Positions 31,949 to 51,504 of a DNA stretch of 64,000 nt are shown here, one piece after another (within the stretch, counting starts at the first letter, position 1; the number at the start of each line of letters is the position of its first letter). The notes under the pieces were generated by a model, which was not told the origin of the DNA, did not search any database, and was given only the letters and a program-made list of their open reading frames with translations. The translations under genes and the position numbers were made by a program. Source of the DNA: Balanoglossus misakiensis (lineage: Eukaryota; Animalia; Hemichordata); assembly GCA_040954595.2 (NCBI GenBank), contig CM082598.2:4221837-4285836 (forward strand), in the 5' to 3' direction.

Positions 31949-33760
31949 TCAGGTCAAACCAAAACCCTCGCTGCCGGCCAAAGCGTTGTCCATACAGTCT
32001 CTGAATGTCTCATAGTTGTCAAATTCCATTGGAATGTGCAGCAGCTGGAAACAGGTCTCTGCAATCGGCAACGTGTGGCTGTGGAACTTGATTTTGATCT
32101 TGCCGTACGACCTCGGTGGCAGAACTGGGCAGCCAGTGATGAACGCAAGAACTTTGGATAATGAAATCGAATTTTGTTCTACAGCACCTGGAATAAAATA
32201 ATTTCATAAAAGTGATGAAAAAAGTGTCACGAGAAAATTGTAATGTATGTGAGAACGTGTAAAGACGCAGGTTATTTTGGTATACACGCATTATTTCAAC
32301 AAAAATGTGATAACTTCACATACATACAGTACTTACATACGTACACATGCATACATACATACATGTCAGAAAACTGTCACTCTTGGAAAAGTACTTTGAT
32401 TCGCGTGTATTTCCCTAACGATTATGGATTTACACCTACCTCGTGCTGCATCTTGCCTGCGTTCACATTCTTGCAAATACCTCGTAAAATGCTTAGACGC
32501 TAGTTTCTTTTCGCTGGAGTCTTTCTTGTCGAATTGGACGAGTCGTGAAATATCACAGTACTTTACTACACTGTCTGCCTGCTTTGGAAATACAACGTCA
32601 CACGCTCCAGGATGTTCCTTTAAAAACTAAAGAAAAAATCTTCATGTCAGTCTTTTGTGGCTTTGTGATTTTCCACCTCTTTTCGTATTTGTTATTTGAA
32701 TATGTACGTGTCTCAGGACAACGGACACGCAAAGCGAAATACTGAAACCAAAGCCAAAAGTTACATCTAAATAAACTCTTAAAGGGGCAAAGTCTCTCTA
32801 TCTCGCTGCCCCTTTTCTATACGTTCGACCACACACAACTTCTAACCCATTTGCAGGGTATGAGAGTAAAAATCTCGCCAAAATGAAAAAAAGGGTAGAG
32901 ACCGATTATTTATTTTATTAACTGTTAGGCTTGCAGTGTTGGTATATTCTCGTGTCTACAAGTGGGTTGGAAGTTGTGTGTGATCGAACATTGATTCACT
33001 ACATATCCACATGCAGGATAACATAAACGGTGTCTTGTATCAAACATTGGTAATAGAAAAGGGGTACCGAGAGAGAGACTTTGTCCCTTTAAATGAAGGG
33101 TCGACTGTGAAAGACAGATGCCCCTTTAACTCTACTCACTTTGGCGAGCGACAGACTGTCAAACCCCTGCCTGAACTGATCGAGTTCGCGTTGTCGTTTC
33201 CTGATGATGTTGTGTAAAAGTAGTTCTTGCACAATCACGTGTTTGTTTTCGTCGTTCACAGTGGTGTTCAATATCCCAGCATCCTTCAGCATATTCACGC
33301 ATTCTTCACTCTTCCCAACGTCCTCCAAATCTCGTCCCTTGCTGTCGATTATCTGAAAAAGAACGTTTTCAGAAAGGTAAAGATCTTGAAGCATGTTCCT
33401 GGGACTAAAATCGTTGTGAAAGTACAGCAAGGCATGCGTACTTTAACAAAATAATATTTTCACTGAATGAATGAATGAATGAATGAATGAATGAATGAAT
33501 GAATGAATGAATGAATGAATGAATGAATGAATGAATGAATGAATGAATGAATGAATGAATGAATGGATGGATGGATGACCGTATGTATGGATGACCGTAT
33601 GTATGTATGTATGCATGTATGTATGTATGTATGTATGTATGTATGTATGTATGTATGTATGTATGTATGTATGTATGTATGTATGTATGTATGTATGTAT
33701 GTATGTATGTATGTATGTATGTGTGTGTGTGTGTATGTTATGTATGTATGTATGTATGTA

Positions 33761-33793
<33 letters not shown>

Positions 33794-49000: not shown

Positions 49001-51504
49001 ACAGGTGTAAAATATGTAATCTGCATAAATAGTACCCGGATTGGTTCACGGGAACAGTAAACACTACGTTAGTTAACTAGCTGGCTGGACGATCGTTTTC
49101 GTTTATCTGGCTATAGGCCTACTACCGGTAGCACAAATTGACGATCTGTTTAATTAGCTAAGGAGGTAAACTGTTGCGATTCATGTGTGCATCTATAACG
49201 TACTGTAAGTTAAACATCGCAACTAGCCTAATGTATGACTAGGAGGAGCACCTACTAATGCGAGAACCAGGGATTAAAAATTCCGCCTTTAAACGAATAT
49301 AGACCTTTAATTTTCGCGTCTCGACGAGTCAGATCTCTCTACACCAAGGTACAATAGGCACTGTTTTCACCAACCTGTAACGAAATGCGCCGAGATGGCC
49401 TCGCCAGTAACATTGCCCTCCCAACGGATAGGCTTCACGTAGACTGTGTATTGAGTGTTCGGCTTCAAATTGACCAGTCTGTATCTCTCCTCTCCCGGGT
49501 CCGCGTAGTACTCCTCGGTCTCCTTCAGGCCAGGGCTTCGATGGGATATACAATAGTTGTCCACTTCCCCTACAGCTGGGCTCCAAGCAATAGTGACAGA
49601 TTTGCACCCGACTTCCTTGATGTGGAGCGGACCGGGCATGTATGGCTCTGAAGAAAGACACCATTTTTTACGACACCGGTATACGCTAAAAAGTAGACTA
49701 GCCCACTAGTCGCTTGGCGATTTTTAAATCTCAATACTTTTTGTGTTTTCGGTGTTTTTTTTGTCTTAATAAATAATTGCAATACTTTTTGCGTGCATGC
49801 TTGCCTTGAGCGTGTTTTTGGTAATGAAGTGAGTTTCGAATTTGGGACTGAGCTTGTGGTTTCGGTTAGTATGGGCCTACGCGTTCCCTACACATAATGA
49901 AGCCCATAGACTTGGAGCAAGTCTAGCTAAAAAGCAAAAATTGCCAAAAGCACACTTTTCACGGTTCTGAAATAGGAATACTCGTCCAATGATACCTCAC
50001 CTTTCCGTACTGCCAATGGTGGCGGGGACACTTTAGAGAACGCCTTCAGACCGCTGGTATCTATACCTGAAAAATGGCCTGTGTTCCCGGCTATTAACAT
50101 CTGCTCAACTTTCGTCATTTTGTCTGCAGAAAAAAAGAAAGATATTCTATTCGTGCTTGAGCTTGTAAAATATCGAGTAACACACAACAAGCAAACATCG
50201 CCAACAAATTATTAAAAGAAATTACAAATGTTATCCATTGAATGTACTTTGTTATAACGGTGCGCGGTCGCCAATGCGGTTCAACCACTGTTACCATGGA
50301 AACAATTCACATATAGCCAATCGCAGATTTTCAGTGGGTGGCACAGGCGAATAGTGTACATCTGGCGTGTGTCTGCATCTACTGGGGCCTGCGTAGTTCT
50401 TAGTTTCAAATACTCGTCACTACAATGTTCTGTCGCTGGTTATAATGTCAAAACGGATATTTGTGTTGTCCTACCATCATATTCCTTACTTCGGGGATCT
50501 GCAGGGGGTACGATAGTCTCCGGGGACCGTTCATCACCAGACACACTTCCCGCTTCTGATTCTGCGTACAAAAAAATACCCACAGACTAGAATTCGAACA
50601 ATAACTTCATGCATGTCACCTGGTCTCAACTTTGCCCCGGGTAGTTTGTCTAGTCACGGTCACTCAACGAACACAACAACGTTTATCTCGGGCGCCGCTG
50701 AAGTTGGTAGAGATATCAAAATTGATTTCAGGAGCAAATCAAACTTGCTTCAGTTGAGCCTGGCCATGTATGTACGTTTATATATCTACGTTTAAATGTC
50801 TACGTAAATGTAAGTGATAACGTAGTTACAATAGTCTTAAATAGGCCTATATTAACATGTACCTGTGAGTGTTGCAAGCGTCGCCGCTTTGCTCTTCAGG
50901 TTCATAGAATGTTTGTGAACAGAAACGAGTTCAATTCTGTATCTCGTCTCCTGCTTGAGGTCTGATATGGTGAATTCGGACGTGGCGCTGTCCACTGCGC
51001 CGGCCCGCCTCTTTTCGCCGGTTTCTTCGTCCACGTAGAAGATCTCATATTTCCCGATGTCTCCCGGTCCACCGTCCCATCTTAGTGTGATTTCCGTCGA
51101 GGTCTTGCAAGTGATGGTTGGTCTCTGTGGGGGACCCGGCTCTACGATCGAGAGAACACCGCAGAGAGAGAGGGAGGGAGGGAGAGAGAGAGAGAGAGGG
51201 GGGGGGGGGGAGAGAGACAGACAGACAGACAGACAGATCCATCAGTAACTTATTTTTAAAGTAAAAATCATGGTAGATGGAAGATAGGAACATTGCAAGA
51301 AAAAATGGGCACGGCTAGGTAAAAGTGAGGAATTTTTATCAGCGACGTAATGTTCAGAACATTCATTTCATTTTTAAGATTTTCGACCTCTGGCTTCTTC
51401 AATTTCACGTTTATAATCTTACCTTCCAGAACGTCGACAGTGTCCACTACTTCCGTTGTCGTCGTGATTCTCCGTTGAGTTCTCCTACCAGCCGAGTTAC
51501 CCAT
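46097..51504 (-). CDS. Predicted N-myristoylated 3xFN3 + G2E3-like HECT E3 ubiquitin ligase (paralog 2); 11 coding exons, ~784 aa
   Basis: Exons 51423-51504, 50863-51141 (FN3), 50490-50561, 50001-50123, 49375-49647 (FN3), 48830-48919, 48297-48566 (FN3), 47616-48139, 47111-47323, 46764-46947, 46097-46341; starts [37 protein letters not shown], ends GGYSRL*. The small linker exons are less certain. Confidence 0.82.
46405..46617. repeat. (AACC)n/(AATC)n microsatellite in an intron
   Basis: Direct inspection. Confidence 0.9.

Follow-up and report, generated by a model that had tools for sequence, protein, structure and literature searches.

Two FN3-HECT genes in an acorn-worm genome

The window analysed here is a 64,000-nucleotide (nt) stretch of the genome of Balanoglossus misakiensis (GenBank assembly GCA_040954595.2, contig CM082598.2, positions 4,221,837 to 4,285,836 of the forward strand). 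It contains two paralogous minus-strand genes, here called A (51504 to 46097) and B (37165 to 31949), each of which combines fibronectin type III (FN3) exons with those of a HECT ubiquitin ligase. The two genes are real, intact and conserved across acorn worms. With a probability of roughly 0.5, their products are lipid-anchored, cytosol-facing and active FN3-HECT E3 ligases of transposon descent that act in the turnover of membrane proteins.

Gene A consists of eight core exons and three likely linker exons and encodes 784 residues; the eight coding exons of gene B encode 692. All junctions are AG/GT and all frames are free of stops. In both proteins a Met-Gly start is followed by FN3 domains (three in A, two in B) and by a C-terminal HECT domain with its catalytic cysteine. 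The five FN3 exons are of phase 1-1 and all exceed the Pfam fn3 cut-off. The HECT domain is spread over four exons cut at equal places in the two genes, the second being 213 nt long in each. Scanned exon by exon, only the last exon of gene B passes the Pfam HECT cut-off, which whole orthologous proteins also pass. Across their shared region the two genes are about 36% identical.

These models agree in most respects with a sequence-only reading of the same DNA. Its two minus-strand genes, with a four-exon HECT, a common 213-nt exon and two versus three phase-1 FN3 exons, were respliced and found canonical and open, and the catalytic motifs it gave (ASTCF in gene A, AETCF in gene B) were recovered. 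The same is true of the starts, MGNSAG in A and MGCASSK in B. Neither protein appears to have a membrane-spanning segment, as hydropathy over 19 residues peaks at 1.06 for A and at 1.25 for B. An upstream ATG that would remove the Met-Gly start was looked for, and a stop codon was found in frame upstream of the ATG in both genes; the starts are therefore not extendable within their exons. The first coding exon proposed as common to the two genes is 82 nt long in each, but its sequence is not shared, with just 4 of 27 residues in common.

The likely linker exons of gene A (72, 123 and 90 nt, all phase 1) restore colinearity with P0001, the orthologue in Ptychodera flava. The 90-nt linker is the weakest of the three, with 7 of 30 residues identical to P0001. 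The A-type linker motif (50001-50123 and 50490-50561, minus strand) is doubled in P0002 and is also seen in P0006, both from Glandiceps talaboti.

The second exon of gene B (270 nt) includes a predicted three-helix domain without a Pfam match (36421-36595, minus strand). The domain is present in two orthologues, P0003 and P0004, and absent from the Saccoglossus models. A fold search gave no clear match for it (best Z 4.9; a CUE entry at Z 4.0), and an Atlas feature search gave no matches. Derivation as a CUE domain from a transposon gene was considered and found no support, with an hhalign probability of 0.6% and only one of six shuffle comparisons near p 0.02, the others being null.

Splicing of the window genes is inferred from sequence and orthology, so the FN3 and HECT exons might belong to separate transcripts and their combination be an artefact. 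The joined architecture, however, occurs in both window paralogues and in seven RefSeq models from three species, with compatible phases everywhere. Separate transcripts are thus extremely improbable, and the FN3 and HECT exons of each gene almost certainly lie in a single transcript.

Two further features are associated with these genes. The 5' part of the first coding exon of gene B (37166-37330, minus strand) contains three upstream ATGs, each stopped before the main start, and translational control is possible. A related repeat with an internal inverted repeat is found at 32860-33093 and 47340-47554 (74-88% identical), in different introns of B and A. It is probably a small non-autonomous element.

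Table 1. Exons of genes A and B, with positions in the window
Feature	Position	Strand	Remarks
Gene A coding exon 1, 82 nt	51423..51504	-	Met-Gly start, then a basic patch; putative signal for myristoylation
Gene A exon 2, FN3 type I, phase 1-1	50863..51141	-	Pfam fn3 E 1.9e-10
Gene A likely linker exon, 72 nt, phase 1-1	50490..50561	-	Canonical sites; colinear with P0001
Gene A likely linker exon, 123 nt	50001..50123	-	Short motif kept in P0001, P0002 (twice) and P0006
Gene A FN3 type II, phase 1-1	49375..49647	-	Pfam fn3 E 1.5e-9
Gene A possible linker exon, 90 nt, weakest	48830..48919	-	Canonical sites; fills gap relative to P0001
Gene A FN3 type II duplicate, phase 1-1	48297..48566	-	Pfam fn3 E 1.4e-10
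Gene A HECT exon 1 (N-lobe)	47616..48139	-	77% identical to P0001
Gene A HECT exon 2, 213 nt	47111..47323	-	
Gene A HECT exon 3	46764..46947	-	
Gene A HECT exon 4 (C-lobe)	46097..46341	-	Catalytic Cys749 codon 46205-46207; Tyr at -4
Gene B coding exon 1, 82 nt	37084..37165	-	Met-Gly-Cys start; predicted myristoylation and palmitoylation
Gene B exon 2	36421..36690	-	Disordered stretch and predicted three-helix domain; conserved in P0003, P0004
Gene B FN3 type I, phase 1-1	35982..36263	-	Pfam fn3 E 3.3e-11
Gene B FN3 type II, phase 1-1	35271..35543	-	Pfam fn3 E 5.2e-9
Gene B HECT exon 1 (N-lobe)	34092..34624	-	
Gene B HECT exon 2, 213 nt	33140..33352	-	
Gene B HECT exon 3	32440..32626	-	
Gene B HECT exon 4 (C-lobe)	31949..32187	-	Pfam HECT E 2.4e-11; catalytic Cys659 codon 32051-32053; Phe at -4

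A family restricted to acorn worms

Full-length RefSeq orthologues with a like architecture and start are found in Ptychodera flava (P0001, 65.6% identical to A; P0004, 67.1% identical to B). Glandiceps talaboti contributes four members (P0002, P0003, P0005 and P0006) and Saccoglossus kowalevskii one (P0152/P0007). The older Saccoglossus model, P0007, lacks the C-lobe and has no Pfam HECT match. In total the family comprises nine genes (ten records) in four genomes, including seven RefSeq gene models outside the window. In RefSeq the models are named as uncharacterized, tenascin-N-like or, for three members, 'G2/M phase-specific E3-like'. The number of genes found per genome is one to four, and orthology is traceable.

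Of 177 proteins profiled, 89 match the family HECT profile and 95 the FN3 profile, and the ten family records (nine genes) are the only ones to match both. The FN3-HECT architecture was not found outside enteropneust hemichordate records, either among these proteins or among the best 150 of 1305 HMMER hits. A Saccoglossus A-type gene was likewise not found among those 150 hits, which does not show its absence. Word-index protein searches returned only the Ptychodera and Glandiceps members; since Saccoglossus escaped them, little weight attaches to what they failed to find.

The HECT tree contains 54 rows, each covering at least 230 profile positions, with near-duplicates removed. The nine family genes form one clade in this tree (support 100/99), in keeping with the lineage-restricted family of paralogues that had been proposed from the window alone. 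The A branch has support of 100/99. The B-side branch, which includes Saccoglossus, has 97/92 (85/86 and 91/76 in other trees). Because Saccoglossus falls on the B side, the A/B duplication is likely to predate the divergence of the sampled acorn-worm families.

The FN3 domains

The 21 FN3 units of the family fall into two types, an N-terminal type and a HECT-proximal type (99/96 and 99/99), the latter of which is duplicated in the A branch. Branching inside each type tracks the HECT tree. Compared with the Ptychodera orthologues, the FN3s of gene A are 78, 75 and 60% identical (HECT 71%) and those of gene B 59 and 71% (HECT 70%). The number of FN3s per family member ranges from one to four and changes only by internal duplication or loss. 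Two named FN3-repeat matches that were looked up are tenascin-X-like.

The sequence-only reading had proposed the FN3s as swappable substrate sensors, possibly in cell-autonomous immunity. In such a fast-evolving immune or quality-control family, modules would be exchanged to change targets, and the variable FN3 number and phase-symmetric exons would suit this. However, the two stable types follow the HECT tree, their identity among orthologues (59-78%) is on a par with that of the HECT domain, and the genes are few and traceable. This makes module swapping very unlikely and leaves the immune role without support. Two stable types inherited with the HECT domain, and as conserved as it is, fit fixed partners better than an arms race; the FN3s are most likely fixed partner-binding modules, to judge from this pattern of conservation.

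The catalytic domain

A TC[F/N] catalytic motif is present in all nine family genes and aligns with the active-site motif of AREL1, which is also the best PDB sequence match to the family C-lobe. C-lobe identity among orthologues is 62-71%. The residue four from the C-terminus, where Phe matters in HECT ligases, is Phe in eight of the nine genes, including B, and Tyr in gene A. An AlphaFold2 model of P0004 (predicted local distance difference test score 81, predicted template modelling score 0.59) consists of a disordered N-terminus, the three-helix domain, two FN3s and a full HECT domain. The HECT portion of this model superimposes on that of HUWE1 with Z 26.1 and a root-mean-square deviation of 4.1 over 351 residues. 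In Pfam scans the family proteins contain only fn3-type and HECT families, with no PHD/RING-like zinc fingers and no C2, WW, RLD or filamin domains.

The N-lobe is only 16-20% identical to solved HECTs, and with such divergence E2 binding is not assured. Alternatively, the proteins could be membrane-anchored adaptors or pseudo-ligases, in which the HECT domain no longer transfers ubiquitin and serves binding or trafficking, as in vertebrate G2E3. Related G2E3 HECTs are called non-functional in the part of PMC3673628 that was available, and the Tyr at -4 in gene A points in the same direction. Set against this, the catalytic Cys and an aromatic residue at -4 are kept in all nine genes, whereas the G2E3-like proteins P0133 and P0150 lack both the TC motif and the GF tail, and the C-lobe is well conserved between orthologues. 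Loss of activity thus appears improbable. The retained catalytic features indicate that the family proteins are probably active HECT ligases.

The predicted lipid anchor

The starts of A and B had been read as N-myristoylation signals of the form MG-x-x-x-S/K, with Cys3 as a second acylation site. Gene B has these residues; gene A lacks Cys3 and has Gly instead of Ser at position 6. Seven of the nine family genes begin with Met-Gly, versus 3 of 77 other Met-starting HECT records, although this control is weak because many of the 77 are partial gene calls. A PROSITE-type myristoylation pattern is matched by six of the nine genes, A and B among them. Cys3 is confined to the B type, where it is found in all four orthologues. 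In gene A, P0001 and P0006 the first 15 residues instead include three to four basic residues and at most one acidic residue. Acylated proteins are commonly held at membranes by dual anchoring, in which myristate is combined with palmitate or with basic residues.

If the Met-Gly start were not acylated, the product would be an active yet soluble cytosolic ligase. Two annotated proteins (Glandiceps P0002 and P0005) lack Gly2, which counts against an anchor, and one more gene fails the consensus at position 6. However, Gly2 persists across the four genomes, on the A side as well as the B side, while the rest of exon 1 diverged, to the 4 of 27 shared residues noted above, and Cys3 is kept throughout the B type. 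A soluble ligase is therefore not a likely outcome. The conserved Gly2 and Cys3 make lipid anchoring likely, and N-terminal acylation of the family proteins is predicted with fair confidence.

Affinity to G2E3-like HECT domains and transposase linkage of related HECTs

The family HECT is G2E3-like by profile score, yet by phylogeny it is not G2E3 itself. Against the family profile, G2E3-like HECTs score 78-201 bits, compared with 52.6 for the best solved canonical HECT, and a G2E3-type protein scores 95.8 bits. In the Atlas, the cluster most similar in structure is G2E3. P0133, a protein with a PHD-like finger and a HECT domain whose G2E3 label is inferred from this architecture, is separated from the family by a 98/96 branch. 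For membership of the class IV GL-Metazoa group, the profile scores give indirect support.

The best non-family match to the profile (200.8 bits) comes from a metagenome scan that yielded three loci, of which only L001 is long enough to reveal a neighbour. In L001 the HECT gene lies tail-to-tail with a PF24764 transposase (E 5e-69) that resembles the IS3EU rows in the supplement of PMC10045372, a source available in part. The L001 HECT keeps a Cys at the catalytic position and is preceded by a phase-1 intron. Relative to the HECT introns of the window genes, the position of intron 1 is exact, intron 3 falls within a gapped hinge, and intron 2 is missing in L001.

A scan of binned assemblies for the transposase motif returned 21 loci, 18 of which were confirmed as transposases. 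Eleven loci, chosen by transposase motif alone, are at least 13 kb long, and six of these hold a G2E3-like HECT (four convergent, two divergent); none of the seven short loci does. In five assemblies with 15 Pfam HECT matches, seven matches lie at most 8 kb from a strong transposase match and two are near weak fragments. This count is only partly independent, since four of its seven linked cases repeat motif-scan loci and the assemblies were picked for their transposases.

In several of the binned prokaryote assemblies (L004-L039), IS3EU-type transposases and HECT genes lie on long contigs that resemble animal DNA and contain introns. These contigs look like host contamination.

The transposase-linked HECTs sit on both sides of the central branch of the tree. 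A topology that places six of them in one clade against the family and the G2E3 type is rejected (approximately unbiased test, p-AU 1.15e-7), in a test that was run after earlier trees had been seen and that involves long branches. This scatter implies either that resident genes arose from mobile HECTs at least twice or that transposons captured HECTs repeatedly. The mobile-to-resident direction is favoured because it needs fewer changes and because the family has a narrow range compared with the wide spread of element-borne HECTs. As the close HECT relatives of the family are often IS3EU-type passengers, domestication is indicated, and a transposon origin of the family HECT is reasonably likely on these comparisons.

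The converse is that the family was never mobile and descends from a resident G2E3-like host gene, IS3EU elements having captured such HECTs several times. This possibility concerns origin, an axis apart from function, and would leave the function unchanged. Several observations lean towards it or weigh against domestication. The L001 HECT is only about 31-33% identical to the window HECTs. Five of the eleven long transposase loci are without a HECT, and six of the 15 HECT matches in the five assemblies are on contigs without a transposase or have none closer than 19 kb. Around the family, the backbone of the tree has little resolution. The nearest rows (P0037, P0033 and P0045) are weakly placed (81/73 to 83/91) and have no known genomic context. 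The root is unreliable as well: the sole outgroup consists of four giant-virus HECTs with long-branch and composition warnings, and for this reason the viral root is not relied on. Finally, the window genes have no adjacent transposase. A tblastn search of the 64-kb window with the L001 transposase found none (best E 0.83). No inverted pair flanks A or B among the 25 longest of 81 inverted pairs, a survey that was not directed specifically at TA..TA termini or a 6-bp target-site duplication.

On the other hand, a never-mobile history requires repeated captures, given the spread of transposase-linked HECTs over the tree. In addition, none of the near relatives that were looked up is a named single-copy gene of such a host lineage, and the named ones include multi-locus near-duplicates (Gouania and Clytia). 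A resident origin is therefore rather unlikely, though less so than the other alternatives considered here. The P0028 cluster (17 members, 12 of which were compared and are 98.0-99.7% identical) may represent copies in one genome or repeat assemblies; owing to this ambiguity it is not counted as transposon evidence.

Scans of viral contigs for HECT relatives and for the transposase, and a protein scan of genome contigs, gave no matches. Divergent HECT genes with long insertions do occur in viral contigs (L042, L052, L053, L055, L056, L057, L059, L060, L063 and L065), two of which have two copies.

The G2E3-type protein P0133 (with a PHD-like finger and without the catalytic motif) and the G2E3-like P0150 are nested in clades whose other members include transposase-linked HECTs. 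The phylogenetic evidence suggests that the HECT of vertebrate G2E3 may also be a domesticated transposon passenger.

A proposed origin and mechanism

Under a transposon origin, the HECT gene of an IS3EU-type element would have lost its transposase in an enteropneust ancestor. FN3 exons of phase 1-1 and a short exon with the Met-Gly start would then have been added at the phase-1 intron that precedes the HECT, and the gene would have duplicated into A and B, with later change confined to duplication or loss of FN3 exons. In the resulting protein, Gly2 would be myristoylated, and a further anchor (palmitate on Cys3 in B, basic residues in the case of A) would keep the protein at the cytosolic side of a membrane. 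A conserved partner may be bound by the two fixed FN3s. The HECT domain would load ubiquitin from an E2 onto Cys749 (A) or Cys659 (B) and transfer it to a membrane-associated protein, with endocytosis or lysosomal sorting the most plausible outcome. Whether the role is indeed membrane-protein turnover is, in our estimation, evenly balanced.

Comparison with known systems

The family appears to share its divergent HECT type with G2E3 and the GL-Metazoa class IV group (PMC3673628 and PMC2837046, both available in part). It differs from G2E3 in having FN3 repeats and a Met-Gly start in place of the PHD-like finger. Relative to the G2E3-type P0133, it is a separate clade that retains the catalytic Cys and the -4 aromatic residue, which P0133 lacks. 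With IS3EU/GingerRoot-type HECT passengers, the source of the best-scoring non-family HECT, it has in common two intron positions and the phase-1 intron before the HECT. Unlike those passengers, the window genes have no nearby transposase, are low-copy with orthologues across enteropneusts, and add FN3 and acylation exons as well as one extra HECT intron.

Analogues of the predicted way of working are AREL1 (filamin-HECT) and the NEDD4 family (C2-WW-HECT), with a binding or beta-sandwich module and a membrane-targeting device before the HECT domain (PMC6457168, in the part available). The acorn-worm family has no filamin, C2 or WW domain, these ligases score far below the G2E3-like group against its profile, and its predicted anchor is a lipid. 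N-terminal acylation places the myristoylated E3s ZNRF2, RNF11 and NEURL1 on membranes (partial texts of PMC12952070 and PMC9285105), but those are RING ligases and the family is HECT.

The sequence-only reading held that canonical HECT subfamilies lack FN3 domains, and the human HECT architecture table in PMC6457168 indeed lists none. The available portion of the HECT survey PMC2837046, according to which G2E3 arose after the chordate/echinoderm split, also contains no FN3. The terms 'fn3' and 'fibronectin' are absent from the main text and two supplement files of PMC3673628, in which Saccoglossus is among the species sampled; supplement file 1 was outside the search and may bear on novelty. 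No description of the architecture was found in the accessible parts of PMC9547173 and PMC13015453. More generally, neither the protein records nor the literature searched, which left out most subscription papers, yielded a described FN3-HECT ligase, hemichordate or other, and one narrow search found no myristoylated HECT.

The IS3EU/GingerRoot superfamily is described in PMC10045372 and PMC6839031, both seen in part. 'HECT' is absent from the text and supplement of the former, as far as available, and a term search of the latter, similarly limited, found neither 'HECT' nor 'ubiquitin'. Repbase entries were outside the search and may record a HECT passenger. Nothing relevant was found in the literature on HECT in IS3EU or other DNA transposons, or on G2E3 as a domesticated transposon gene. 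As far as these searches reach, the FN3-HECT protein with a predicted lipid anchor is a new variant of HECT ligase, present in RefSeq as gene models for which no description was found.

Other features of the window

Genes A and B are not neighbours, being separated by an F-box gene and by an inverted pair of genes with signal-peptide-like sequences. The F-box protein (Pfam F-box) is encoded directly downstream of gene A by a single long frame of about 508 residues (44014-45540, minus strand) and represents a second ubiquitin-system gene. The pair is arranged head-to-head at about 39100-40534 (minus strand) and 41826-43200 (plus strand), and its members are paralogous, with signal-peptide-like starts and first exons 61% identical. 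No Pfam or PDB match was found for the pair; a thioredoxin-like look is no more than a guess. By Pfam, the flanks (15400-31000 and 53400-56750) contain photolyase/cryptochrome FAD-binding, 2OG-Fe(II) oxygenase, LOH1CR12 (BORCS5) and glutathione S-transferase domains, which are usable as synteny anchors. A 575-codon frame at 58838-60565 (minus strand) is low-complexity, acidic and repeat-containing, without a Pfam match.

Implications

The reach of these observations is limited, in that the family is found only in acorn worms and its substrate is not known. Within those bounds, they add an FN3-HECT architecture, predicted to be lipid-anchored, which is missing from all the HECT surveys searched. 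They may also provide a traceable case in which a multidomain enzyme was assembled from the non-transposase passenger of a transposon and shuffled exons of the kind found in extracellular proteins. A broader proposal, which we hold to be as open to failure as to success, is that IS3EU transposons form a reservoir of HECT domains that was tamed at least twice, once in the acorn-worm FN3-HECT family (active, lipid-anchored and exon-shuffled at a phase-1 intron) and once in the HECT of chordate G2E3. If this is true, the divergent class IV G2E3-like group would consist largely of transposon cargo and its domesticated descendants, and for G2E3 it would explain both the late arising of the human ligase and its divergent HECT domain.

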